Of a DNA stretch of 31,491 nucleotides, positions 1 to 23,692 are shown piece after piece. Each line of letters begins with the position of its first letter. Position 1 is the first letter of the stretch. The position numbers and the translations under genes are program-made. The notes under the pieces were generated by a model, which had not been told where the DNA came from, searched no databases, and worked only from the letters and a program-made list of their open reading frames with translations. The stretch comes from Escherichia coli (GTDB taxonomy: Bacteria; Pseudomonadota; Gammaproteobacteria; Enterobacterales; Enterobacteriaceae), in the NCBI RefSeq assembly GCF_003334255.1, contig NZ_QOWU01000059.1. One strand, written 5' to 3'.

Positions 1-63
1 GACATCAGTACCCGTGATGAAGGCGGGGGCGGAAAGGTCGTGGTTATCGGGCGGCAGGGGTAA
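1..63 (+). CDS. 3' end of a phage tail assembly protein I-like gene (partial; start lies upstream of the window)
   Basis: Frame 1 runs open from base 1 to a TAA at 61-63 (…DISTRDEGGGGKVVVIGRQG*). It sits directly upstream of the J homolog, as gene I does in lambda. Identification rests on position and on the Gly-rich C-terminus only. Confidence 0.4.
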   Translation, partial: DISTRDEGGGGKVVVIGRQG

Positions 64-406
64 AAAGAATAAAAAAATCCCGCAGTGATCGCGGACAGGA
101 ACTGCGGGAGAGTTACGAAGATTAAGTGTAAGGAATTATTCTTATATCACGACAAAAAAATTAACGCAGAGAAATTATACGCGCCACAGTCAGTTTGTGA
201 AAATGTGAAGATATTCAGAATTTTTATGCCATTACCGGTTTTAACCAACAGGATTATCGGTGGGCATGAAAGAAAACCCCGGTATCTGCTGATACCGGGG
301 TTTCTCTTTAGCATGGCAGAAATGTGTTTCATGCTTTTCGGGCGAAGGATATCCGACTTCTGTACGGAATGGCAAGTGGCGGTTAATTTATTCAGGGGAA
401 GGCTGT

Positions 407-3400
407 ATGGGAAAAGGTGGCGGTAAGGCACACACGCCTCGTGAGGCGAAGGATAATCTCAAATCCACGCAGATGATGAGCGTGATTGATGCGATTGGTG
501 AGGGACCGATAGAAGGTCCGGTGAAGGGACTGCAGAGTATCCTGGTGAACAAAACCCCGCTGACGGACACGGACGGTAATCCCGTGATACACGGTGTGAC
601 GGCGGTCTGGCGCGCCGGGGAGCAGGAGCAGACACCACCGGAAGGCTTTGAGTCCTCCGGTGCTGAAACCGGACTGGGCGTGGAAGTGACGAAGGCAAAA
701 CCGGTGACGCGCACCATTACGTCCGCGAACATTGACCGCCTGCGGGTTACCTTCGGGGTGCAGTCACTGGTGCAGACCACGTCAAAGGGTGACCGAAACC
801 CGACATCCGTCCGCCTGCTGATTCAGTTACAGCGTAACGGTAACTGGGTGACAGAAAAGGATGTCACCATTAACGGCAAGACCACCTCGCAGTTTCTGGC
901 GTCGGTGATTCTGGATAATCTGCCTCCCCGTCCTTTTAACATCCGGATGGTCCGGGAGACAGCGGACAGCACCACGGACCAGCTGCAGAATAAGACGCTG
1001 TGGTCGTCATACACCGAAATCATCGATGTGAAACAGTGCTACCCGAACACGGCCATTGTGGGGCTGCAGGTGGATGCGGAGCAGTTCGGCGGCCAGCAGA
1101 TGACGGTGAACTACCATATCCGCGGTCGCATCATCCAGGTGCCGTCAAACTATGACCCGGAAAAACGCACGTACAGTGGTATCTGGGACGGCAGTCTGAA
1201 ACCGGCATACAGCAACAACCCGGCCTGGTGCCTGTGGGACATGCTGACTCACCCGCGCTACGGCATGGGAAAACGTCTGGGGGCGGCGGATGTGGACAAG
1301 TGGGCGCTGTATGCCATCGGGCAGTACTGCGACCAGACGGTCCCGGATGGTTTCGGGGGGACCGAGCCGCGGATGACCTTTAATGCGTACCTGGCACAAC
1401 AGCGTAAGGCGTGGGACGTTCTCAGTGATTTCTGCTCTGCGATGCGCTGTATGCCGGTATGGAACGGTCAGACGCTGACGTTCGTTCAGGACCGCCCGTC
1501 GGATGTGGTGTGGCCGTACACCAGCAGCGATGTGGTGGTGGATGATAACGGCGTGGGGTTCCGCTACAGCTTCAGTGCCCTGAAGGACCGGCACACGGCG
1601 GTGGAGGTGAATTACACCGACCCGCAGAACGGCTGGCAGACCTCCACGGAACTGGTGGAAGACCCGGAAGCCATACTGCGCTACGGACGCAACCTGCTGA
1701 AGATGGACGCGTTCGGCTGTACCAGCCGCGGTCAGGCCCACCGTGCCGGGCTGTGGGTGATAAAGACCGAACTGCTGGAAACGCAGACGGTGGATTTCAC
1801 GCTCGGGTCACAGGGGCTGCGTCACACACCCGGTGACATCATTGAAATCTGTGATAACGACTATGCCGGGACCATGACCGGCGGACGTGTCCTGTCCATC
1901 GATGCCGCCAGCCGTACCCTGACGCTGGACCGGGAGGTGACACTGCCGGAGACCGGCACGGCCACTGTTAATCTGATTAACGGCAGCGGTAAGCCGGCGA
2001 GCGTGGCCATCACCGCACACCCCGCGCCTGACCGGATACAGGTCAGCACCCTGCCGGATGGTGTGGAGACATACGGTGTGTGGGGACTCTCCCTGCCGTC
2101 ACTGCGTCGTCGCCTGTTCCGCTGTGTCTCCATCCGGGAAAACACGGACGGCACCTTTGCCATCACGGCGGTGCAGCACGTACCTGAAAAAGAAGCCATC
2201 GTGGATAACGGGGCCCGCTTTGAGCCGCAGTCAGGCACCCTGAACAGCGTTATCCCACCGGCAGTGCAGCACCTGACGGTGGAGGTGAGTGCAGCTGACG
2301 GTCAGTATCTGGCACAGGCGAAATGGGACACGCCGCGGGTGGTGAAGGGTGTGCGCTTCAGTCTGCGTCTGACCAGCGGAAGCGGAGAAGACAGCCGTCT
2401 GGTGAGCACCGCCAGCACCGCAGACACGGAGCACCGTTTCAGCGGCCTGCCACTGGGGGAATACACCCTGACGGTCAGGGCGATTAACAGTTATGGCCAG
2501 CAGGGCGAACCGGCCACCACCACGTTCAGGATTAACGCACCTGCAAAACCCGCCACCATTGAGCTGACGCCGGGGTATTTTCAGATAACGGCGGTCCCGC
2601 GTCTTGCGGTGTATGACCCGACGGTACAGTTTGAATTCTGGTTCTCAGAAAAACGCATCACGAACACAGCACAGGTGGAAAAATCTGCCCGTTATCTGGG
2701 GACCGGCAGTCAGTGGACTGTCCATGGGAGCCGGATTAAGCCGGGGACGGATTTCTGGTTTTACGTGCGAAGCGTCAACCTGGTGGGAAAATCTGCTTTT
2801 GTGGAAGCCAGCGGGCAGCCCAGCAATGATGGTGAAGGGTATCTGGAAATTTTCCGGGGGCTGATAGATGAGACGCTTCTGGGCCAGGCACTGAAAGAGC
2901 GCATTGATGCTTCAGCGCTGCGTACGGAGGTCACGCAACTGGAAGAAGACATCCGTCAGCGGATGGACACGGATATCGCAGAAGTGACCCGGAAAATCGG
3001 GAAGGCGGAAAACAGCCTCACGCAGCTGGTTGCGAAAAAGAATGAGGACCAGACACTGGCCATCGCGCAGGTGAGCCAGAAAGTGGACCGGGTGAGCAGT
3101 GAAATCTCACAGACTGTCAGCCAGGGGCAGTCAGAAAACGCCCGACAGATAGCACAGGTCCGCCAGTACGTGGATAAAAAAGGGAGTGAAATTACCTCGA
3201 CCACGGATAAAAAGCTGGGTGACCAGGCCGTGACCATACAGCAAATCCAGCGGGTTCAGTCAGACACGCGCAATGAGCTGAATGCCATGTATATGCTGAA
3301 GGTGCAGAAAACAAAAAACGGTATTCCCTATGTGGCCGGGATTGGCGCGGGGATTGAGGATGTTGATGGTCAGACGCTGAGCAGTATTCTGCTGCAGGCG

Positions 3401-4099
3401 GACCGTATCGCGATGATTACCCCGGAGAACGGCAACACCACGCCGCTGTTTGTGGCGCAGGGGAATCAGCTGTTCATGAACGACGTGTTCCTGAAGCGAC
3501 TGTTTGCGGTGAGCATCACGTCATCCGGCAATCCTCCTACGTTTTCCCTGACGCCGGATGGCAGGCTGACAGCCCGCAATGCGGATATCAGTGGAGCCAT
3601 CACGGCGAATACCGGCACGCTCAATAATGTCACCATTAACGAGAACTGTGTCATCAGAGGGAAACTGTCTGCAAACCAGATTGAAGGCGATCTCGTTAAA
3701 ACAGTGGGTAAGGCTTTCCCCCGTGACTCCCGTGCACCGGAGCGTTGGCCATCAGGAACCATTACCGTCAGGGTTTATGACGATCAGCCGTTTAACCGGC
3801 AGATTGTTATTCCGGCGGTGGCTTTCAGCGGTGCCAGACATGAGCGGGAGAACAGCGATACTTATTCGTCATGCCGCCTGATAGTACGGAAAAACGGTGC
3901 TGAAATTTATAACCGTACCGCGCTGGATAATACGCTGATTTACAGTGGTGTTATTGATATGCCTGCTGGTCGCGGCCACATGACGCTGGAGTTTTCTGTA
4001 TCAGCATGGTGGGTAAATGGCTGGTATCCCACAGCAAGTATCAGCGATTTGCTGGTTGTTGTGATGAAGAAAGCCACTGCAGGCATCACGATTAGCTGA
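407..4099 (+). CDS. J: Phage host specificity protein J (tail tip / central tail fiber), 1230 aa
   Basis: N-terminus [22 protein letters not shown]… and long collinear stretches (…[22 protein letters not shown]…, …[24 protein letters not shown]…, …[18 protein letters not shown]…) match lambda gpJ as I recall it. AGGGGAAGG Shine-Dalgarno lies ahead of the ATG at 407. About 100 aa longer than lambda J, with extra coiled-coil-like sequence near aa 820-950. Confidence 0.93.
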
Positions 4100-7900: not shown

Positions 7901-7944
7901 CCGTCAAAAACATCGCATTTAACTATATTGTGAGGCTTGCATAA
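4918..7944 (+). CDS. stf: Side tail fiber protein (Stf-like), 1008 aa, mosaic
   Basis: N-terminus [22 protein letters not shown]… and C-terminus …[31 protein letters not shown] match lambda Stf as recalled. Contains an Ala/Ser/Thr-rich low-complexity segment, three copies of a G-N-x-x-TATK(L/I)-x-(T/A)AR-x-I-(N/G)GV-x-FDGSA(N/D)I phage tail-fiber repeat (about nt 6650-7240), and His-rich HTHS/HAHT repeats near the C-terminus. Confidence 0.9.
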
Positions 7945-8528
7945 TGGCATTCAGAATGAGTGAACAAGCACGGACCATAAAAATTTATAATCTGCTGGCC
8001 GGAACTAATGAATTTATTGGTGAAGGTGACGCATATATTCCGCCTCATACAGGTCTGCCAGCAAACAGTACCGATATTGCACCACCAGATATTCCTGCTG
8101 GCTTTGTGGCTGTTTTCAACAGTGATGAGGCATCGTGGCATCTCGTTGAAGACCATCGGGGGAAAACGGTTTATGACGTAGCGTCAGGGGACGAGTTATT
8201 TATTTCTGAACTCGGTCCGTTACCGGAAAATGTTACCTGGTTATCGCCGGAAGGGGAGTTTCAGAAGTGGAACGGCACAGCCTGGGTGAAGGATACGGAA
8301 GCAGAAAAACTGTTCCGGATCCGGGAGGCGGAAGAAACAAAAAACAACCTGATGCAGGTAGCCAGTGAGCATATTGCGCCGCTTCAGGATGCTGCAGATC
8401 TGGAAATTGCAACGGAGAAAGAAACCTCATTGCTGGAAGCCTGGAAAAAGTATCGGGTGTTGCTGAACCGTGTTGATACATCAACTGCACCTGATATTGA
8501 GTGGCCTACGAACCCTGTCAGGGAGTAA
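7944..8528 (+). CDS. tfa: Tail fiber assembly protein (Tfa), 194 aa
   Basis: [34 protein letters not shown]… is near-identical to lambda Tfa as recalled. The start overlaps the stf stop in a TAATG arrangement (translational coupling). Confidence 0.92.
8367..8528 (+). repeat. Direct repeat copy A (3' end of tfa), ~160 bp
   Basis: Nucleotide alignment by eye: gagcatattgcgccgcttcaggatgctgcagatctggaaattgcaacgg… versus gagtatattgcgccactgcaggatgctgtagatctggaaatcgcaacgg… at 9416; roughly 85-90% identity, same orientation. Confidence 0.75.
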
Positions 8529-9640: not shown

Positions 9641-9805
9641 GGTATTGGGATTATACGCAATCAGTTTTAGTTAAAGACCGAAGCTCTCGAAAAATCTTTC
9701 TCCAAAACCAGAATGGAATTGATTGATTTTGATAGGATCTATAACGCCGTTACCTTAAACGGCAAAACCACTCAAAAACAAACTTAATGCATTGAATATA
9801 AAGGA

Positions 9806-10669
9806 TTAATCATCTAATTCGCTCACCTTCTTATTCAGCAGACGAGAAGCGCGCCAGTAAACCAGCAACATCAGGCCCATTACGATAGTCAGCGTAATGC
9901 TGGTGGCTGCACCAAATGGCCAGTCACGAATATTGAGGAACTGTACCTTGATGACGTTACCGATCAGCAGGTTTTTCGCACCGCCCATCAGGTCGGACAC
10001 ATAGAACAGGCCCATCGCTGGCAGCATCACCAGCAAACATCCGGCAATAATTCCCGGCATCGTCAGTGGAATAATGATACGGATAAAAGTCTGTAACTTG
10101 CTGGCACCGAGATCGCGCGCCGCCTCAAGCAACGGCTTATCCAGTTTTTCGATACTGGAGTACAGCGGCATCACCATAAACGGTAGCAGAATGTAAACCA
10201 GACCGATAATCACCGCACTGGGCGTGAACATGATACGAATTGGTGTGTCGATAACGCCCAGCCAGAGCAAAAACTCGTTGAGATAGCCTTTGGTGCTGAG
10301 GAAAATTTTCAGCCCGTAGATGCGAATCAGTGAGTTGGTCCAGAAGGGAACAATCAGCAGAAACAGCAGCAGCGGACGCACCTTGTGTGGCAGCTTCGCC
10401 AGAAACCAGGCAAACGGGTAGCCCAGCACCAGGCAGGCGAGGGTGGCGATCAGCGCCATATTCAGCGAGTGCAATAGCACTTCAAAATAGAGCGGATCGA
10501 GCAGACGCGTGTAGTTATCCAGCGTAAAGACCATTTTGACGAAACTGGCGTCGTCGCGGGTCAAAAAGCTGGTGCCAATGATCATCAGGTTGGGCAGAAA
10601 GACAAACAACACAAGCCAACCGACAATAGTGACAATCACTACATTCTGGAACTTACTTGTGTTCTTCAT
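9806..10669 (-). CDS. potB: Spermidine/putrescine ABC transporter permease PotB
   Basis: Multi-pass permease sequence (…[20 protein letters not shown]…[21 protein letters not shown]…) directly downstream of, and overlapping, potA as in potABCD. The 287-aa ORF from the first ATG may exceed the true length; the real start could be an internal GTG/ATG. Confidence 0.85.
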
Positions 10670-11789
10670 CAGCCAGTACGACCTCCCAGCTTTCTACCCA
10701 ATTAATGGCCATTTTTTGGTCGAGAGAGTGGTCAAAGTCAGGGTCGTCTTCATTGAAGAATTCGCTGACCATCACCATCTTGCCATTTTCCAGTTCAACA
10801 ACCGACTCCAGCGTCATGCCTTTGTAGTTACGCTCACGAACGTAACCAATCAGCCCTTCAGCGTGGTTGTCGTCGTTAATCTCTTCAACACGTAAGTCTT
10901 CCGGGCGCAGCAGAACATGCAGTTTTTGCCCCGGTTCAACGGCGAAGTTAACGTAGATATTACATTCGCGGCCTTCAACGTTGGCGCGTACGCGCTGCTC
11001 GTCTAGACGTTCGATGACAGTGGCGTTAAACATATTGATTTCGCCAATGAAGCCGGCAACAAACAGGTTTTTCGGCTCTTCGTAAATTTCGCGCGGTGTA
11101 CCATCTTGCTCAATACGACCCTCGCGCATCACCACAATCCTGTCTGACATGGTGAGCGCTTCTTCCTGATCGTGAGTGACAAAGACGAAGGTAATACCAA
11201 GCTTACGCTGTAACGCTTTCAGCTCGTTCTGCATTTGCTTACGCAGTTTGTAATCCAGCGCTGAGAGCGACTCATCCAGCAACAACAGACGAGGCTTGTT
11301 AACCACCGCGCGAGCAATGGCGACGCGTTGCTGTTGACCACCAGAGAGCTGATGCGGTTTACGTTGAGCGAAGGTTTCCAGTTGCACCATCCGCAGGGCT
11401 TCCATCACGCGGGGCGTAATTTCAGCAGCGGGGGTTTTTTGCATGCGCAACCCAAAGGCCACATTTTCGAACACGGTCATGTGGGGGAAAAGTGCGTAGC
11501 TTTGGAAAACAGTGTTCACATAGCGGTTTTCCGCCGGAACGTGGGTGATGTCCTCGTTATCCAGCATGATGCGTCCGGAATCAACAGTTTCCAGACCTGC
11601 AATCAGGCGAAGAACGGTTGTTTTACCGCAGCCAGAAGGGCCAAGCAGCGTGAGGAACTCGCCATTGTTGATAGTCAGATCCAGCTGGGGAATGACCTCT
11701 TTACCATCAAAGCATTTGCGAATTCCCGCCAATTGCACCAGCGGTGAAAGCGAACTCGGTTGTTTATTCAATTTTTTACTCTGTCCCAT
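10653..11789 (-). CDS. potA: Spermidine/putrescine ABC transporter ATP-binding protein PotA, 378 aa
   Basis: Walker [13 protein letters not shown] signature [14 protein letters not shown], Walker B LLLLDE; length and sequence match E. coli PotA. Confidence 0.93.
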
Positions 11790-12038
11790 GTAAACGCAAC
11801 GGATGGCTTACCGATGCGGGGTTTGTGGTTAACCACCTTGGTGACTCTTAATGAGGGCGGTAATTCTACGGCAAACCGCTTGAATCGCCAATCTTTGTTG
11901 TGAATTACTGGCTTAGCTTTATATTCATTAAGGTAATGCTGATAAATATTCCCGCTTGCAGGGGTAAAAGTGACCTGACGCAATATTTGTCTTTTCTTGC
12001 TTCTTAATAATGTTGTCACAAAAAGTGAGGGTGACTAC

Positions 12039-13265
12039 ATGGATAAACTACTTGAGCGATTTTTGAACTACGTGTCTCTGGATACCCAATCAAAAGCAGG
12101 GGTGAGACAGGTTCCCAGCACGGAAGGCCAATGGAAGTTATTGCATCTGCTGAAAGAGCAGCTCGAAGAGATGGGGCTTATCAATGTGACCTTAAGTGAG
12201 AAGGGCACTTTGATGGCGACGTTACCGGCTAACGTCCCTGGCGATATCCCGGCGATTGGCTTTATTTCTCATGTGGATACCTCACCGGATTGCAGCGGCA
12301 AAAATGTGAATCCGCAAATTGTTGAAAACTATCGCGGTGGCGATATTGCGCTGGGTATCGGCGATGAAGTTTTATCACCGGTTATGTTCCCGGTGCTGCA
12401 TCAGCTACTGGGTCAGACGCTGATTACCACCGATGGTAAAACCTTGTTAGGTGCCGATGACAAAGCAGGTATTGCAGAAATCATGACCGCGCTGGCGGTA
12501 TTGCAACAGAAAAAAATTCCGCATGGTGATATTCGCGTCGCCTTTACCCCGGATGAAGAAGTGGGCAAAGGGGCGAAACATTTTGATGTTGACGCCTTCG
12601 ATGCCCGCTGGGCTTACACTGTTGATGGTGGTGGCGTAGGCGAACTGGAGTTTGAAAACTTCAACGCCGCGTCGGTCAATATCAAAATTGTCGGTAACAA
12701 TGTTCATCCGGGCACGGCGAAAGGAGTGATGGTAAATGCGCTGTCGCTGGCGGCACGTATTCATGCGGAAGTTCCGGCGGATGAAAGCCCGGAAATGACA
12801 GAAGGCTATGAAGGTTTCTATCATCTGGCGAGCATGAAAGGCACCGTTGAACGGGCCGATATGCACTACATCATCCGTGATTTCGACCGTAAACAGTTTG
12901 AAGCGCGTAAACGTAAAATGATGGAGATCGCCAAAAAAGTGGGCAAAGGGTTACATCCTGATTGCTACATTGAACTGGTGATTGAAGACAGTTACTACAA
13001 TATGCGCGAGAAAGTGGTTGAGCATCCGCATATTCTCGATATCGCCCAGCAGGCGATGCGCGATTGCGATATTGAACCGGAACTGAAACCGATCCGCGGT
13101 GGTACCGACGGCGCGCAGTTGTCGTTTATGGGATTACCGTGCCCGAACCTGTTCACTGGCGGTTACAACTATCATGGTAAGCATGAGTTTGTGACTCTGG
13201 AAGGTATGGAAAAAGCGGTGCAGGTGATCGTCCGTATTGCCGAGTTAACGGCGCAACGGAAGTAA
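12039..13265 (+). CDS. pepT: Peptidase T (tripeptide aminopeptidase), 408 aa
   Basis: [21 protein letters not shown]… matches E. coli PepT. Start chosen at ATG 12039 (GTGAGGGTGA Shine-Dalgarno upstream) rather than the longest-ORF start at 11997. Confidence 0.9.
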
Positions 13266-13273
13266 GCGAAAAG

Positions 13274-13298
13274 GGATGCGGCATGTGATGCCGCATCC
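13274..13298. terminator. Hairpin between convergent pepT and roxA (GATGCGGCAT-gtg-ATGCCGCATC)
   Basis: 11-bp stem read directly; sits in the 48-bp gap between two convergent genes. Confidence 0.45.
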
Positions 13299-13313
13299 GG
13301 CTTAAATCCAAAC

Positions 13314-14435
13314 TTACCCTTCGAAGAACCAATACCCGCTATTGACCAGCGCCGCGAGCATCGCGAGGAATGACGGATCTTCCAGCGCATCGCCAAAATT
13401 CTCCGCAGTCAGCGCAATGTTGCTGGCGAGTGCATCCAGTGCCGGACGGTGCGGGGAATCGATCTTCTCACCATTGGCATACACGTCGTCGCCAATGCGC
13501 AATACGCGCAGACCACCCAGGCGCACCAGCACTTCACCTTGTTTCAGCGCATCGTAGATTTCATCCGGCTGATAAGGCGGCTCTGGCGGCGCGATATCCA
13601 GTTCATGACGTGACTGGGATATAAACTCGCCAAACCATTGCTTAAAGTGTTCCGGCTGGTTGATCAATTCGAGCATCATCTCACGCAGTTTATCCATCTC
13701 TTGCGGCAGAACATCCGCAGGATGAGCGCGAGGTGGAACATCCGGATCGCTGTAGTAGTTGCCGCCCAGTTCACGTTGCAGCACATAATCGGCAAATCCA
13801 CTAATCAGTTCCCGCGTATTTGGCGCGCGAAAGCCCACGGAATAGTTCATCGCATTTTCCAGCGCGTAGCCTTCATGCGGGAATCCTGGCGGAATATAAA
13901 GAATATCGCCAGGCTCCAGCTCTTCATCGATGATGGCTTCGAACGGATCGACCTGTAACAGATCCGGGTGTGGGCAGTGCTGTTTCATTTGCAGCTTTTC
14001 GCCCACTCGCCAGCGACGACGTCCGGTACCCTGAATGATAAACACGTCGTACTGATCGAGATGCGGGCCGACGCCGCCGCCAGGTACAGAAAAAGAGATC
14101 ATCAGATCATCAATACGCCAGTCCGGTAGTTCACGGAACGGTCGCATCAGCGCGGCGGTCGGCTCATGCCAGTGATTTACTGCTTGCACTAACAATGACC
14201 AGTTAGTTTCACCGAGATGATCGTAGCTTTCGAACGGACCGTGGCTGACCTGCCATTTGCCATCCTGGTGACTGACCAGTCGACTGTCGACTTCGCTTTC
14301 CATCGCCAGACCCGCCAACTCGTCTGGAGAGATCGGGTCAATAAAATTATTAAAGCCGCGTTTTAACACCACCGGGCGTTTCTGCCAGTGACGTTCAAGA
14401 AAATCGGGCCAGTTAAGAGTGAGTTGGTATTCCAT
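13314..14435 (-). CDS. roxA: Ribosomal oxygenase RoxA/YcfD (cupin/JmjC-like 2-oxoglutarate oxygenase), 373 aa
   Basis: MEYQLTLNWPDFLERHWQKRPVVLKRGF… matches E. coli YcfD. Start set at the internal ATG (14433-14435) that gives the K-12 length. Confidence 0.85.
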   Translation of the reverse strand: MEYQLTLNWPDFLERHWQKRPVVLKRGFNNFIDPISPDELAGLAMESEVDSRLVSHQDGKWQVSHGPFESYDHLGETNWSLLVQAVNHWHEPTAALMRPFRELPDWRIDDLMISFSVPGGGVGPHLDQYDVFIIQGTGRRRWRVGEKLQMKQHCPHPDLLQVDPFEAIIDEELEPGDILYIPPGFPHEGYALENAMNYSVGFRAPNTRELISGFADYVLQRELGGNYYSDPDVPPRAHPADVLPQEMDKLREMMLELINQPEHFKQWFGEFISQSRHELDIAPPEPPYQPDEIYDALKQGEVLVRLGGLRVLRIGDDVYANGEKIDSPHRPALDALASNIALTAENFGDALEDPSFLAMLAALVNSGYWFFEG

Positions 14436-14510
14436 GTTAAGCATCCACAGGCTGGTATCTGCAACCGATTATAACGGATGCTTAACGTAATGCGTGAAGT
14501 ATGGACATAT

Positions 14511-15971
14511 TTATTCATCTTTCGGCGCAGAATGCTGGCGACCAAAAATCACCTCCATCCGCGCACCGCCCAGCATGCTCTCTCCGGCGACGATTTTACC
14601 CTCATATTGCTCGGTGATTTCGCGGGCTACCGCCAGCCCTACACCTTGCCCAGGGCGTAAAGTATCAACCCGTTGACCACGGTCGAAAATGACCTCTCGC
14701 TTGCTTAATGGAATACCGGGTCCATCATCCTCGACCACAATATAGAGATGCTCGTCGGTTTGCCTTGCAGAAATTTCGACAAACTCGAGGCAATATTTAC
14801 AGGCATTATCCAGCACATTGCCCATCACCTCGACAAAATCGTTCTGCTCACCGACAAAGCTGATCTCTGGCGAAATATCGAGAGAGATATTGACCCCTTT
14901 GCGTTGATACACTTTGTTCAGCGCCGAGGTGAGATTGTCCAGCAGTGGGGCGACCGGATGCAGCTCGCGGCTAAGCAATGTCCCGCCGCGCATACTGGCA
15001 CGATGCAGGTAGTAGCCAATTTGCTGTGAAATGCGGCTGATTTGCTCCAGCATTACCGGTTCAGCATCACTGACGCTCATCTTTTCACTACGCAGAGAAC
15101 GCAGCGTACTTTGCAGCACCGCCAGTGGCGTTTTCAGACTATGGGTCAGGTCGGTGAGCGTCGTACGGTATTTGTCGTAACGTTCGCGTTCACTTTTTAA
15201 CAATCGGTTCAGGTTTCGTACCAGACTGGTCAGTTCTCGCGTTGTGGCTGGATTGAGCAATTCGCGGTTATGTTCTTCCAGTTCGCGGACTTCTTTTGCC
15301 AGGGCTTCGATGGGGCGTAAACTCCACCAGGCGGCGACCCACAGCAGCGGGATCACTAACAGCAGATTGGCTGAGAGCACATAGATAAACCAGCTCCAGA
15401 CCATATAGGAACTTTTTAGCTCCACCGGAATGGTATCCACCACCACAATGGTTAATTTTGGCATCCGCGATGTTGCCGGGTAGACGTTTACTGCCACCGA
15501 GTGGGTCATCTCCGCGTCGTCGTCATCTTCCCGCACTTCCTGCAACTGTTGCTGTATCGAATGATCTCCACTCAGCAAGAGGCTGGTATCGTTAACATCC
15601 GCTTCAATTTCATGAAAACCATTCGATTTCAGCCAGTCAGGCTGGATCATCTTCATCAGCCAGGGCACGTCACGTTGCGCCCATAAAAGCTGCCCGTTCT
15701 CATCATAAATTAGCGTCATGGTGGGGCTTTGCTTGTCGATATTTTCTGGTAACTCGACATGCAACTTATTGTTTTCCCACTTCGCAAGGGTATAGAACAG
15801 ATTGCTTTCGCCACGTAACAGCCGAAACGTAGTTTTATCGAAACTGACGCTATAACCGATCAGCGCGACCATTCCGTAGGCAAGCGAAAGCACCAGTACT
15901 ACCGCTGCCGTTGCCAACAGAAAACGTACCCGCAGCGAGAGCGGGAAAAAAAGACGCAGTAATTTTTTCAT
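14511..15971 (-). CDS. phoQ: Sensor histidine kinase PhoQ, 486 aa
   Basis: [25 protein letters not shown]…, acidic patch EDDDDAE, H-box [12 protein letters not shown]; full-length match to E. coli PhoQ. Start overlaps the phoP stop (ATGA). Confidence 0.95.
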
Positions 15972-16642
15972 CAGCGCAATTCGAACAGATAGCCCTGGCC
16001 GCGAACGGTGGTAATCACTTCTTGCGGATATTGTGCCTGAATTTTTTTGCGCAGACGTCCCATCAGTACATCAATGGTATGGCTTTCCCGCAGCTCCGCA
16101 TCCGGATAGAGTTGTAGCATTAACGAATCTTTGCTCACCACTTTGCCATTATTGCGTATCAACGTTTCCATAATGGTGTATTCGAACGCGGTCAGTTTGA
16201 TCACTTCGTCATTAATAGATAATTCACGGCGAGAGAGATCAACCTGAAACGGGGGGAGCGAAATGACCTGTGAAGCCAGACCGCTATTACGCCGCATTAA
16301 TGCCTGCATTCGCGCCATCACCTCTTCAATATGAAACGGTTTAGTCACATAATCATCAGCACCGGCACTTAATACTTCGACTTTGTCCTGCCAGCTTTCA
16401 CGGGCGGTTAATACCAGAATCGGCAGTGAAACATCGTTGCTACGCCAGCGGCGAATCAGTGACAGACCGTCCTCGTCTGGCAATCCGAGATCGACAATCG
16501 CAATATCCGGTATATGTTCATTGAGATAATAATCGGCTTCTTTGGCATCTTCTGCGTCATCGACCTGATGACCAGCATCCTGAATCTGAACTTTAAGGTG
16601 GTGACGTAACAACGCATTGTCTTCAACAACCAGTACGCGCAT
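15971..16642 (-). CDS. phoP: Response regulator PhoP, 223 aa
   Basis: [40 protein letters not shown]… is an OmpR-family receiver plus winged-helix protein matching E. coli PhoP. Confidence 0.95.
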
Positions 16643-16702
16643 TTTTATTTCTCCCTGTCTTAATTATTAAAATAGTGTAACGCGATTATGTGGTTATGGG
16701 GG

Positions 16703-16719
16703 TAAACATTAAATAAACC
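16703..16719 (-). promoter_or_regulatory. PhoP box (direct repeat GGTTTA-N5-TGTTTA on the minus strand) upstream of phoPQ
   Basis: Plus strand reads taaacattaaataaacc; the reverse complement is GGTTTATTTAATGTTTA, which fits the (T/G)GTTTA-N5-(T/G)GTTTA consensus, ~60 bp upstream of the phoP ATG. Confidence 0.6.
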
Positions 16720-16810
16720 AGCGGGGAGGGGAGGTAAAGTGAAAAAATAAAAAGCGGATAATCTTAATAAGCAGGCCGGACAGCATCGCCATCCGGCACT
16801 GATACGAGGT

Positions 16811-18184
<1,374 letters not shown>

Positions 18185-18832
18185 TCACAACTCCGGGGTT
18201 AAATGAGCAAGAATTTGTTTTGCCTGAGTGGTCAGGCGATTACGAGAAAACATCAGTTGCAGACGTCCGCCGCCGACCTGGTGCCAGAGCACGGTGGCGC
18301 GAATGCCTGCCAGCAGGGTTGCGCGAACTTTCGCCTGCACTTGTGGGCTTTGCAGTACAGCAGGGGAACCGGTGACCTGAATGCGCGGGCCAAGCGGGCT
18401 AATCACATCAACATAGATAGCAGCCATCGCGCTCATCAGCGTTTCGGACTGTAAATCGAAGTGTTCGAGCTGGCGTTGCAGGCCGTTGATCCGGTTGCCC
18501 AGAGTGTCGAGCGCGCCTTTCGCTGAGGAGAGTTTGCGCTCAAGCACCATCAAGCTGAGTGTGTAGCGGGTTAATTCGGCGTTTAAGCCCTGGCGACTGC
18601 TGGCATTGAGCACGCCGAGCAGGGTTTCCAGCCCGACGCGCAGGTTGGCTTCGCTACCGCCAAAAACCGCCAGCGTCGAGCTGGGGTTCATATCAATAAT
18701 ACTGTTGAGTGAGACGTGTAGCGCATCGGCATCACAATGCCCCTGGTGAGCGAGTTGTTGCACCAGGCGTGCCGACTGACAAATACCGGCCAGGGCGAGG
18801 GTGATGTCATAGTAATTCTTTGCCACGTTCAC
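18185..18832 (-). CDS. hflD: High-frequency lysogenization protein HflD (YcfC)
   Basis: …[46 protein letters not shown]… matches HflD. The true start may be a GTG two codons inside the longest ORF. Confidence 0.88.
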
Positions 18833-18861
18833 TGCTTCCTTGTTTTAAGTAAAGATAATAA

Positions 18862-20483
<1,622 letters not shown>

Positions 20484-20492
20484 TTTGCATCC

Positions 20493-21146
20493 TTAATCTG
20501 TCACTTCTCGCCATTCGCCATTGGCAAGATTATCCAAAGAGTAATCACCCATCGCATAGCGAATCAGTCGCAGCGTGGGGAAGCCAACATGGGCGGTCAT
20601 GCGGCGCACCTGGCGATTACGTCCTTCATATAAGGTGATCTTCAGCCAGCTGGTGGGAATACTTTTGCGTTCACGAATTGGTGGATTCCGCGGCCATAAC
20701 CACGCGGGTTCGTCAACCAGCTCCGCGCCGGCGGGCAGGGTAGGGCCATCATTTAAGGTTACGCCATTGCGCAAGGCTTCAAGTGCGTCTTGTGTGGGAA
20801 TACCTTCCACCTGCACATAATAGATTTTTCCGGTGCGTTTACCCGGCTGGGTTAAACGCGCCTGCAACGCGCCGTTATTGGTCAGCACCAGCAACCCTTC
20901 GCTATCGCGGTCAAGGCGACCTGCTGCATAAACGCCCTGAACCGGGATGAATTCTTTTAATGTTTTGCGTCCGGCTTCATCGGTGAACTGCGGAAGAACA
21001 TCGTAGGGTTTATTGAACAGGATCACACGCGTGGGCTGGTTTTCAGGTTTACGCCTGGTAGAACGTTGCGAGCTGAATCGCTTAACCTGGTGATTTCTAA
21101 AAGAAGTTTTTTGCATGGTATTTTCAGAGATTATGAATTGCCGCAT
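20493..21146 (-). CDS. rluE: 23S rRNA pseudouridine synthase RluE, 217 aa
   Basis: RsuA/RluE-family motifs (…[21 protein letters not shown]…); conserved position divergent from icd. Confidence 0.9.
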
Positions 21147-21317
21147 TATAGCCTAATAACGCGCATCTTTCATGACGGCAAACAATAGGGTAGTATTGAC
21201 AAGCCAATTACAAATCATTAACAAAAAATTGCTCTAAAGCATCCGTATCGCAGGACGCAAACGCATATGCAACGTGGTGGCAGACGAGCAAACCAGTAGC
21301 GCTCGAAGGAGAGGTGA

Positions 21318-22568
21318 ATGGAAAGTAAAGTAGTTGTTCCGGCACAAGGCAAGAAGATCACCCTGCAAAACGGCAAACTCAACGTTCCTGAAAATCCGAT
21401 TATCCCTTACATTGAAGGTGATGGAATCGGTGTAGATGTAACCCCAGCCATGCTGAAAGTGGTCGACGCTGCAGTCGAGAAAGCCTATAAAGGCGAGCGT
21501 AAAATCTCCTGGATGGAAATTTACACCGGTGAAAAATCCACACAGGTTTATGGTCAGGACGTCTGGCTGCCTGCTGAAACTCTTGATCTGATTCGTGAAT
21601 ATCGCGTTGCCATTAAAGGTCCGCTGACCACTCCGGTTGGTGGCGGTATTCGCTCTCTGAACGTTGCCCTGCGCCAGGAACTGGATCTCTACATCTGCCT
21701 GCGTCCGGTACGTTACTATCAGGGCACTCCAAGCCCGGTTAAACACCCTGAACTGACCGATATGGTTATCTTCCGTGAAAACTCGGAAGACATTTATGCG
21801 GGTATCGAATGGAAAGCAGACTCTGCCGACGCCGAGAAAGTGATTAAATTCCTGCGTGAAGAGATGGGGGTGAAGAAAATTCGCTTCCCGGAACATTGTG
21901 GTATCGGTATTAAGCCGTGTTCGGAAGAAGGCACCAAACGTCTGGTTCGTGCAGCGATCGAATACGCAATTGCTAACGATCGTGACTCTGTGACTCTGGT
22001 GCACAAAGGCAACATCATGAAGTTCACCGAAGGAGCGTTTAAAGACTGGGGCTACCAGCTGGCGCGTGAAGAGTTTGGCGGTGAACTGATCGACGGTGGC
22101 CCGTGGCTGAAAGTTAAAAACCCGAACACTGGCAAAGAGATCGTCATTAAAGACGTGATTGCTGATGCATTCCTGCAACAGATCCTGCTGCGTCCGGCTG
22201 AATATGATGTTATCGCCTGTATGAACCTGAACGGTGACTACATTTCTGACGCCCTGGCAGCGCAGGTTGGCGGTATCGGTATCGCCCCTGGTGCAAACAT
22301 CGGTGACGAATGCGCCCTGTTTGAAGCCACCCACGGTACTGCGCCGAAATATGCCGGTCAGGACAAAGTAAATCCTGGCTCTATTATTCTCTCCGCTGAG
22401 ATGATGCTGCGCCATATGGGTTGGACTGAAGCGGCTGACCTGATTGTTAAAGGTATGGAAGGCGCAATCAATGCCAAGACCGTAACTTATGACTTCGAAC
22501 GTCTGATGGAAGGCGCTAAGCTGCTGAAATGTTCAGAGTTTGGTGAAGCGATCATCGAAAACATGTAA
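21318..22568 (+). CDS. icd: NADP-dependent isocitrate dehydrogenase, 416 aa
   Basis: [45 protein letters not shown]… is a full-length match to E. coli Icd, with strong codon bias. Confidence 0.96.
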
Positions 22569-22591
22569 TCTCTCCATGTGTTAAATATTGA

Positions 22592-22622
22592 AACGGGCGT
22601 ATAACACGCCCGTTGTTTTATT
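22592..22622 (+). terminator. icd intrinsic terminator (AACGGGCGT-ataac-ACGCCCGTT followed by GTTTTATTTAT)
   Basis: 9-bp perfect stem followed by a T-rich run, 24 bp after the icd stop. Confidence 0.65.
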
Positions 22623-22670
22623 TATGTGGATATTATTAATAGCATATCGAGCATATTTATATGAAGCCCA

Positions 22671-22994
22671 TTACTTGAGCCCATATGGGCATATTTTTAT
22701 AATGCAACTATTATGTAAACATTTATTTGTTATTTTGCTTTCTCCTGGAGGACACTCTTGACTGCTTTTGAGTAAACTCCATAAATCCTTGTTGAATGGT
22801 GCGATGTGATAAATAGTAATAGGATATTCTTTATCCTTAAGGATAATACCAGACTTAACCGGTGTAAATATACTGCCAGGAGGGAGAAATATAGTAGATT
22901 GATACCAGATGATCATTTTCATATTACCCCATATGGCTGAAAAAGATATACCACATGTAGGTTGAATTACCGTGTCAATTACTATCCACTTCAT
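22671..22994 (-). CDS. iraM: Anti-adaptor protein IraM (RssB inhibitor; YcgW), 107 aa
   Basis: [32 protein letters not shown]… recognised as IraM; AT-rich gene immediately after icd, as in K-12 once e14 is discounted. Confidence 0.8.
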
Positions 22995-23454
22995 TTGTTA
23001 TGTCTTATCCCACGGTATTTAATATGGTTCATTAGGATGTTTATTTCTTGATTTTGCATATGAGTATATTACCCCCCCCTCAAAAAATAAATTAATTAAA
23101 ATGATGGCTTATATAAAATAAAATTTAAAGCAAGGAATCTCAATGGATGTTAAACAAAATGAGATTTTGTGAAAGCAATAAATTATTGACTTCGTTTTAG
23201 ATTTGTTTAGCTATAATGTTATACATTCAAATGACTGAACATCCTGTAATTAAAACATAGCCTTTATGCTACTTTGTACCAATTTGCTAAACATTATGGT
23301 TGCCTTTTTATATAACGATAATAATGAATATAAGCATGACATGAGAATAAGGTTTCAATTTTTGAGTTATATAGGAATGATTTAACCTGTTCCTGGCTAA
23401 AATACATATAACCGGATGATGACTAAACCAAAATACATGTGCGTTAAGTATTGA

Positions 23455-23485: not shown

Positions 23486-23692
23486 AAATATGTTAACCGT
23501 TATAAAATAACGTATCAAAAGTCAAGTGATCACATTTCAAATATCAAGTTGATAGTATTAGTCTGGTGATTATTTATGGGTGACAATAAAAAGACAGTAT
23601 TAATCATCCATAGAGATAGTCTCTGCACTTTTATTTCCATTATGCTAATGCCTTACTGAATTATGAAGCATTTCTTAAGTATCCAACTTTAG

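Follow-up and report, generated by a model that had tools for sequence, protein, structure and literature searches.

The type of locus with which this study is concerned, a small RNA (sRNA) gene lying against the late operon of an Escherichia coli prophage, has been known since 2014 and was described again in 2021. PasB (pathogenicity-associated sRNA B) is an 83-nt, Hfq-dependent sRNA of E2348/69 (a strain of enteropathogenic E. coli, EPEC), found by RIL-seq and confirmed by Northern blotting, the level of which drops when hfq is deleted (by -6.8 and -2.4 on a log2 scale; Pearl Mizrahi et al. 2021, PMC8550237), and which sits within a phage structural-gene operon, often with IS009 nearby (Zhu, Shabalina & Storz 2026, bioRxiv 10.64898/2026.05.13.724894). 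EcOnc22, EcOnc23 and EcOnc24 were reported as Hfq-CRAC peaks in the Sakai prophages Sp15, Sp14 and Sp11, run as RNAs of ~85 nt in Northern analysis and lose stability when hfq is missing (Tree et al. 2014, PMC4104026). Here we analyse a 31,491-nt stretch of E. coli DNA (contig NZ_QOWU01000059.1 of assembly GCF_003334255.1, hereafter the window), in which a 343-bp spacer separates the lambda-like tail genes I and J. To judge from its sequence, the left half of this spacer is a reverse-facing small regulatory RNA gene, a variant of PasB/EcOnc22. This sRNA is the main feature of the spacer, and a 13-bp hairpin further to the right is a separate, terminator-like element upstream of J. We put the probability that the spacer as a whole is best explained as a small 'moron' site with two independent non-coding modules at roughly 75%.

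The I stop codon and the J start, as placed by the original prediction for this DNA, agree with the RefSeq I/J boundaries at the E. coli ATCC 25922 locus, which is 99.9% identical to the window, and the spacer between them is AT-rich, as had been noted (GC 0.34–0.48 vs 0.51–0.65 in J). In lambda, where J was said to follow I almost immediately, the gap is 60 bp (I ends at 15444 and J starts at 15505), so that this description is roughly right. Both inverted repeats reported earlier were recovered, one with perfect 13-nt arms at 274–286 and 291–303 (100% complementary, 4-nt loop) and a shorter one, formerly put at about 80–110, with 9-nt arms at 78–86 and 101–109 (100% complementary, 14 nt between them). 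Of the three options that had been offered, a degenerate cargo gene, a small RNA or an attenuator, the small RNA stands, but not in the expected place: it lies on the opposite strand and uses the minor repeat, not the 13-bp hairpin, as its terminator. The features of the left half and of the flanking genes are as follows.

1–63, plus strand: 3' end of the tail assembly gene I, stop codon TAA at 61–63 (from the sequence and the RefSeq annotation of the ATCC 25922 locus).
71–167, minus strand: PasB/EcOnc22-family sRNA, divergent allele, with a predicted primary transcript of ~97 nt running from 167 to 71.
71–109, minus strand: predicted intrinsic terminator of the sRNA, stem CCCGCAG/CUGCGGG, arms 78–86/101–109, U7 tail at 77..71.
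110–152, minus strand: variable sRNA body, the presumed seed, with the core AAyUCCUUxxACxxUxAUCUUC single-stranded in the consensus fold.
174–201, minus strand: predicted sigma-70 promoter of the sRNA, -35 TTCACA at 201..196, 16-nt spacer, -10 TATAAT at 179..174.
204–219, no strand assigned: conserved dyad TGTGA-N6-TCAGA with CRP-like half-sites, upstream of the sRNA promoter.
407–4099, plus strand: tail tip/host specificity gene J (from the open reading frame (ORF) list and RefSeq gpJ), with its ribosome-binding site (RBS) GGGGAAGG at ~395–402.

A consensus promoter scan found TTCACA-16-TATAAT on the minus strand with 11 of 12 consensus positions, and a terminator scan called a minus-strand hairpin formed by the small inverted repeat and followed by seven T; in the E2348/69 spacer the same promoter and terminator pair was called. 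The annotation of PasB itself (NC_011601 1466343->1466261, 83 nt on the minus strand) falls between E2348C_1436 and E2348C_1437, which are I and J, respectively. The PasB Northern probe, AATCCCGCAGTGATCGCGGAGCT (PMC8550237 Table S6), is located in this E2348/69 I-J spacer and matches window positions 76–95 on the plus strand (20/23 nt), which places the sRNA on the minus strand. The ends of the annotated 83-nt PasB, when carried over, correspond to window 152->71. The window locus shares with PasB the I-J slot, the strand antisense to the tail genes, the TTCACA-16-TATAAT promoter, the upstream dyad and a partly conserved CU-rich core, while the 25-nt 3' half of the terminator together with its U7 is identical in the two alleles and constitutes their only exact match. 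They differ in the 5' stem (GUCGUGAUAUAAGAAUAAUU in the window allele against GCCCGAGUAACAAAAACAAC in PasB), in the core and in the terminator loop, which differs by 5 nt and is longer in the window. Rfam searches of window 1–500 gave nothing at the gathering threshold, at an E-value of 10 or below they gave only sub-threshold matches at chance level, and neither a PasB nor an EcOnc22 family was returned.

Each of the three EcOnc22/23/24 peaks falls within an I-J spacer and is antisense to the tail genes. The EcOnc probe (GGGAGAGAACGATGAAGATTAAC…) agrees exactly over its first 23 nt with the RNA body in Sp15, Sp14 and Sp11, and in the I-J spacers of all three Sakai prophages this body stands directly upstream of a PasB-type terminator. 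Because the probe matches a homologous RNA body, EcOnc22-24 and PasB are, on this comparison, alleles of one family, whose expression and Hfq dependence have been published for these two sister alleles. Taken at face value, the published EcOnc22-24 coordinates would place the peaks antisense of the hairpin of a neighbouring segment (R-E, see below); this proved to be a genome-version artefact, and identity was settled by the probe sequence. Mapping of AgvB1 showed that the coordinates in Table S2 of Tree et al. 2014 are offset by ~+140 bp vs NC_002695.2 near 1.94 Mb, so EcOnc peaks mapped onto NC_002695.2 by published coordinates will be misplaced. The AgvB/AsxR anti-sRNAs were also considered as an identity for the locus and ruled out, as they are sited at the moron site downstream of PR' and not at the I-J junction.

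EcOnc22-24 resemble the window allele in their terminator and core motif, as well as in spacer and strand, and differ in having a third body allele (…AACUCCAUAACGUUAAUCUUCAUCGUUCU…) and another -35 region; their spacers carry the short R-E module on the right, without the 13-bp hairpin module. The window gene has what characterises both described groups, a position in the I-J gap on the opposite strand and its own predicted sigma-70 promoter and poly-U terminator, and, divergent as its body is, synteny together with intermediate mosaic alleles makes homology of the whole cassette with PasB/EcOnc22-24 clear. In the literature on PasB and EcOnc22-24 we found no statement equating the two as one family: the EPEC study notes homologues in enterohaemorrhagic E. 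coli for PasA and PasD and none for PasB (PMC8550237, Table S6), and a 2021 review lists the function of EcOnc22 as unknown. A literature search on the window allele's own sequence or on that of the hairpin found no paper.

The sRNA loci were gathered in three ways, through the conserved promoter block, through I-protein similarity and from E. coli genomes. Thirty-one distinct alleles were found, 14 of which were aligned. All alleles share the -10 (TATAAT or AATAAT throughout), a GCGUUA…U-run at the 5' end, the U7 tail and, unpaired and conserved in part, the core AAyUCCUU..AUCUUC, in which UCCUU is anti-Shine-Dalgarno-like. Of the 14 aligned alleles, 13 have an identical CCCGCAG/CUGCGGG stem and one has a shortened form of it, the loop ranges from 4 to 16 nt, and the body is a mosaic of alternative segments. 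When computed on loci not selected through the promoter block, mean pairwise identity was 0.96 for the terminator 3' arm and U tail, 0.48 for the terminator loop, 0.72 for the body or seed and 0.87 for the adjacent I coding sequence, and the conservation of the dyad half-sites was 0.88. Each of the 77 loci chosen solely by I-protein similarity has the PasB terminator signature in its I-J gap. The left module is present in 1848 of 5426 complete E. coli genomes, in up to 9 copies per genome; the window allele outnumbered all others in the viral sample, and 633 matching E. coli records are at least 99% identical to it. The possibility raised earlier, that such a spacer is universal and coding in related phages, is borne out only as regards breadth (about 27–34% of complete E. 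coli genomes), the spacer being non-coding. One locus, in E. coli JNE170426 (positions 392–871 of our record L175), has a 471-bp I-J spacer with a tandem of two PasB-like units, both complete with dyad, promoter and terminator, and between them a duplicated stretch resembling the end of I.

The 2026 survey of PasB was restricted to Escherichia, used a word size of 28 and required >75% coverage, and its PasB variants differ by few nucleotides (bioRxiv 10.64898/2026.05.13.724894). When E2348/69 PasB is compared with the window by blastn, a word size of 28 gives no match and a word size of 11 gives only the 25-nt terminator, with 30% coverage. The window and Sakai alleles thus very probably fall outside that survey because of the strong divergence of the body or seed region. 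The wider family gathered here is much more diverse than the survey describes, and the window allele is common but undescribed.

If these comparisons are taken together, the first module (64–232, minus strand) would be a complete gene for an Hfq-type trans-acting sRNA of the PasB/EcOnc22-24 family. Its ~97-nt RNA would consist of a U-rich/A-rich 5' hairpin, a single-stranded CU-rich core, which is probably the seed, and a 7-bp GC stem with U7 that may serve both as terminator and as Hfq-binding 3' end. In a lysogen, where the tail operon is silent, the window allele would presumably be transcribed in the orientation opposite to that operon, and its RNA would regulate mRNAs of the host and of islands through base pairing. 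As its body differs from both characterised alleles, its target set is probably different as well.

The dyad upstream of the promoter, TGTGA-AGATAT-TCAGA, matches 9 of 10 CRP core positions and is the sole match with one mismatch or fewer to TGTGA-N6-TCACA in the 31-kb window. In loci collected independently of the motif, the half-sites persist, five different sequences occupy the six-base centre and the neighbouring -35 region drifts; such retention of half-sites around a variable centre suggests a putative site for a dimeric factor. The sRNA Spot 42 is repressed by CRP. In EPEC, PasB was higher in non-activating medium, where Spot 42 was ~5-fold lower (PMC8550237). Activation of PasB by CRP would fit this pattern, and the PasB-family promoter may be under CRP control.

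The right half of the spacer is made up of a second module, with the following features.

233–373, no strand assigned: right-hand module, termed R-W, delimited by alignment with E2348/69 and missing in the E2348/69-type spacer.
274–303, no strand assigned: perfect 13-bp hairpin, within an extended palindrome at ~264–314 with the T-rich tails UUUCUCUUU (plus strand) and UUUUCUUUC (minus strand).

The palindrome is longer than was first noted because the flanking A and T runs pair too. When folded, as had been proposed for it, the hairpin is better than all 200 shuffles on both strands (270–312, plus strand, -25.2 kcal/mol, z -7.6; 262–315, minus strand, -28.4 kcal/mol, z -8.6), its stability being about -25 to -29 kcal/mol overall on either strand. 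R-W was found in 1446 of 5426 genomes, and 1441 of the 1451 matching records are at least 99% identical to it; among the matches listed it has no feature of its own, the few exceptions being neighbouring tail genes. Its 13 copies in a phage collection are all identical, with no distant relatives. A scan with the hairpin arms, using one genome per species, gave otherwise unrelated hairpins in unrelated phyla, and its only spacer matches were in E. albertii and in a contig (L150) of a Collinsella sp. metagenome-assembled genome. The latter shares the window flanks and is therefore likely to be misbinned E. coli prophage DNA contaminating that genome.

At this position E2348/69 has not R-W but R-E, a shorter segment whose own hairpin precedes TTGTTTTT on the plus strand. 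Across nine variants of the R-E hairpin 98.9% of cells are paired, one compensatory change from C-G to U-A is seen and the T-run is invariant; a plus-strand terminator was called here by the terminator scan. In lambda, the 60-bp I-J gap (746–805 in our record L178, lambda 15445–15504) folds at -21 kcal/mol and contains the hairpin AAACCGCC-tgcg-GGCGGTTTTGTCATTT with a T-run, again on the plus strand; to our knowledge no named terminator or element has been assigned to this gap. A hairpin with a T-run, on the strand of the tail genes and before the J RBS, thus recurs in three unrelated sequences, the 13-bp hairpin of the window being the form found in R-W.

Among the 77 loci selected through the I protein, 49 carry R-W, 22 R-E and five an insertion of sodC, and in one R-W lacks the hairpin by a precise deletion. 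Pairings between left and right modules are not fixed: window-type sRNAs occur with R-W in 43 cases and with R-E in nine, E2348-type sRNAs with R-E in 25 and with R-W in 23, and further combinations exist. This free combination points to recombination in the conserved promoter block, by which the modules would be shuffled. Two kinds of rearrangement were seen in the right-hand module, a clean deletion of the hairpin between two AGAAA repeats (locus L115/L211) and, in two IMG/VR sequences (L066 and L105), an insertion at about window position 256, after ...CAACAGGATT, which opens with an ORF starting MNKKTKRTFTPEF and has, by look alone, the appearance of an IS3-family orfA.

Because other spacer types and lambda have a hairpin and T-run at the same place, we infer that the 13-bp hairpin is an intercistronic intrinsic terminator or insulator, and since the minus strand also has a good T-run (UUUUCUUUC) it could act both ways and is probably bidirectional. 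The attenuator or terminator option of the original prediction is therefore a reasonable one for this hairpin. The resemblance to intrinsic terminators lies in a GC-rich stem of 10–13 bp, a 4-nt loop, T tracts after the stem on both strands and A tracts before it; stem and loop are as expected for that class, and the tails hold 6–7 T in 8 if the A/T extension is not taken as part of the stem. The difference is that the T-runs are interrupted (UUUCUCUUU and UUUUCUUUC). Under this reading the second module (233–373) would be a factor-independent terminator or insulator just upstream of the J RBS. On the plus strand it would stop polymerase not modified by Q from entering J and the cargo genes beyond, during lytic growth Q-modified polymerase would read through it, and on the minus strand it would keep antisense transcription coming from J out of the sRNA promoter. 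Both blocks would operate in the lysogen.

A number of points weigh against the two-module explanation. As regards the sRNA, the predicted transcript of 97–98 nt exceeds the published 83–85 nt, in which case either the 5' end is processed or the predicted transcription start is off. The centre of the dyad, at 211.5, lies at about -44.5 from the predicted start near 167, which is non-canonical for CRP activation and not one of the productive positions (-41.5, -61.5, ...); for this reason the promoter is not filed here as CRP-dependent, and the dyad may bind CRP in another mode, or another dimeric factor. As regards the hairpin, the consensus terminator scan did not call it, and its interrupted T-runs are able to pair with the upstream A-runs; R-W is almost invariant and so offers no covariation to back any structure. 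A terminator in a Q-antiterminated operon has no obvious lytic role, and no Hfq-CRAC peak is listed for the Sakai Sp12 spacer, which has the hairpin module, in a list comprising top peaks only.

The alternative that fares best, although we regard it as unlikely, is that the hairpin is a processing or stability element of the late mRNA and not a terminator. Once the transcript is cleaved, the hairpin would close off the upstream tail message at its 3' end or form a plus-strand 3'-derived RNA, and it would determine how much upstream tail-gene message there is relative to that of J in lytic growth. The recurrence of a plus-strand hairpin before the J RBS in lambda, R-E and R-W despite their unrelated sequences speaks for this, as does the folding of window 226–312 (plus strand) into two strong hairpins (-41.3 kcal/mol, z -7.1). 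Q-modified polymerase ignores terminators, and a lytic function therefore suits a stability element better than termination. However, the conserved T-run that follows the stem, TTGTTTTT in R-E, marks a terminator and would be superfluous in a stability hairpin. An independent plus-strand RNA would also lack a promoter, the scan giving none above its threshold on that strand; the best candidate by eye is ACGACA-18-AATTAT (8/12).

We think it somewhat less probable still that the hairpin module is a second minus-strand sRNA gene in tandem with the PasB-like one, with a promoter at 375..346, an RNA of ~75 nt (about 339->265) and the hairpin with UUUUCUUUC as its terminator. A promoter-like TTGCCA-18-TATCCT (9/12) does stand at 375..346 on the minus strand, and the minus-strand RNA of 264–340 folds at -32.2 kcal/mol (z -6.2), but the promoter match is weak and has no conserved dyad upstream. 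Tandem PasB-like units do exist within one spacer, in the JNE170426 strain mentioned above, and the alignment of window 221–312 with the segment between those units, although weak, beats all but 1 of 1000 shuffles (tied); the junction GGGCATGAAAGAAAACCCCG also resembles the junction between the I stop and the PasB terminator, GGGGATGAAAAAAAATCCCG. Against this, homology between the two spacer modules was rejected, the similarity of the PasB module to R-W being non-significant with a score at the shuffle mean, and for the Sakai Sp12 spacer, which carries R-W, no EcOnc Hfq peak is listed. In R-E the T-run is found on the plus strand only, which makes the conserved property at the hairpin position a plus-strand one.

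A small protein, encoded by a 66-aa ORF (226–426) or a 113-aa ORF (85–426) as a degenerate or small cargo gene, is highly improbable: both ORFs exist, the record of phage ASU11 annotates the 66-aa frame as a hypothetical protein and this frame has a hydrophobic stretch, but the stretch is in part a translation of the palindrome, no Shine-Dalgarno sequence precedes the ATG at 226, stop codons interrupt the 113-aa frame in ASU11, in several copies a frameshift, truncation or deletion affects the 66-aa frame, both frames are missing from the R-E spacers that replace the module in many phages, and RefSeq annotates nothing there among the matches listed. Neither ORF has a significant PHROG match (best E-value 0.095), in line with the absence of recognisable similarity reported before, and the degenerate cargo gene suggested at that time is thus left without family matches, its frames being disrupted or missing in related loci; no intact ORF that is conserved and resembles a family, by which a protein-coding moron would be recognised, was found.

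The two-module explanation, which we prefer, relates the spacer to other phage-borne elements. Morons of lambdoid phages were reportedly described by Juhala and colleagues in 2000. Like them, the sRNA cassette is an autonomous unit of promoter, gene and terminator placed between conserved phage genes and expected to be expressed from the prophage; the difference is that the cargo here is an RNA and points against the late operon. The I-J junction can be regarded as a recurrent moron site because sodC is also inserted there, in 5 of the 77 loci selected through the I protein, on the minus strand and replacing the PasB promoter. In these loci the PasB body and terminator directly downstream are likely to serve as the 3' untranslated region and terminator of sodC. 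An IMG/VR sequence (L198, 2080–2930) provides an example, with an I-J gap of ~850 bp containing minus-strand sodC for a Cu,Zn superoxide dismutase (NF007628, 218 bits).

Lambda OOP, a 77-nt antisense RNA with its own promoter and terminator, is comparable as a short phage RNA that runs against a phage operon and is fully complementary to the mRNA of its own phage there. It differs in that it overlaps the 3' end of cII and acts in cis with RNase III, while PasB is wholly intergenic and has documented trans partners on Hfq. As the gene is reversed inside the late operon, the lysogen sRNA has perfect complementarity to the late transcript of its own prophage at the I-J junction, and PasB-family RNAs might conceivably also be allele-specific cis-antisense regulators of the late tail mRNA, an idea we consider doubtful. 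If true, the sRNA would also pair with the late transcript of a superinfecting phage carrying the same allele, cleavage or silencing of the message immediately before J could result, and spontaneous virion production would be damped or related phages interfered with. The fast-diverging body between an invariant dyad and terminator would then reflect diversifying selection among competing prophages. In a variant of this idea the -10, which is symmetric (at window 173–179 the minus strand reads TATAAT and, overlapping it with an offset of one base, the plus strand reads AATTAT), would fire rightward too, with a weak plus-strand -35, ACGACA, at 149–154 and divergent starts ~18 bp apart (167 and ~185), and the plus-strand terminator before J would stop the divergent transcript.

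Elsewhere in the window the only Rfam hit is IS009, full length, at 8287–8485 on the plus strand (222 bits, E-value 1.5e-54), inside an ORF at 7944–8528 that is annotated as a tail fibre assembly protein in ATCC 25922. Comparison of window ~9800–23000 and 23600–31491 with that strain puts the end of the prophage beyond its tail fibre genes and a methyltransferase, adjoining potB, and the host genes potBA, pepT, roxA, phoQP, purB, hflD, mnmA, nudJ, rluE and icd come next. A second lambdoid prophage lies at icd, with integrase, excisionase, exo/bet/gam, kil and cIII, and a copy of ISEc52.

In conclusion, what is new at this locus is the link between PasB and EcOnc22-24, the wider diversity of the family, a candidate operator, the modular build of the spacer and the recurrent hairpin before J, which from lambda onward is a small unremarked feature of a classic operon. 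About one complete E. coli genome in three has this slot occupied, often in several copies, and the slot is blank in RefSeq among the matches listed, with no Rfam match; carriers of the window allele include the quality-control strain ATCC 25922 and many extraintestinal pathogenic E. coli isolates. The conserved dyad can be tested as a candidate operator, and the alleles with their exchangeable bodies constitute a natural allelic series for working out sRNA targets.

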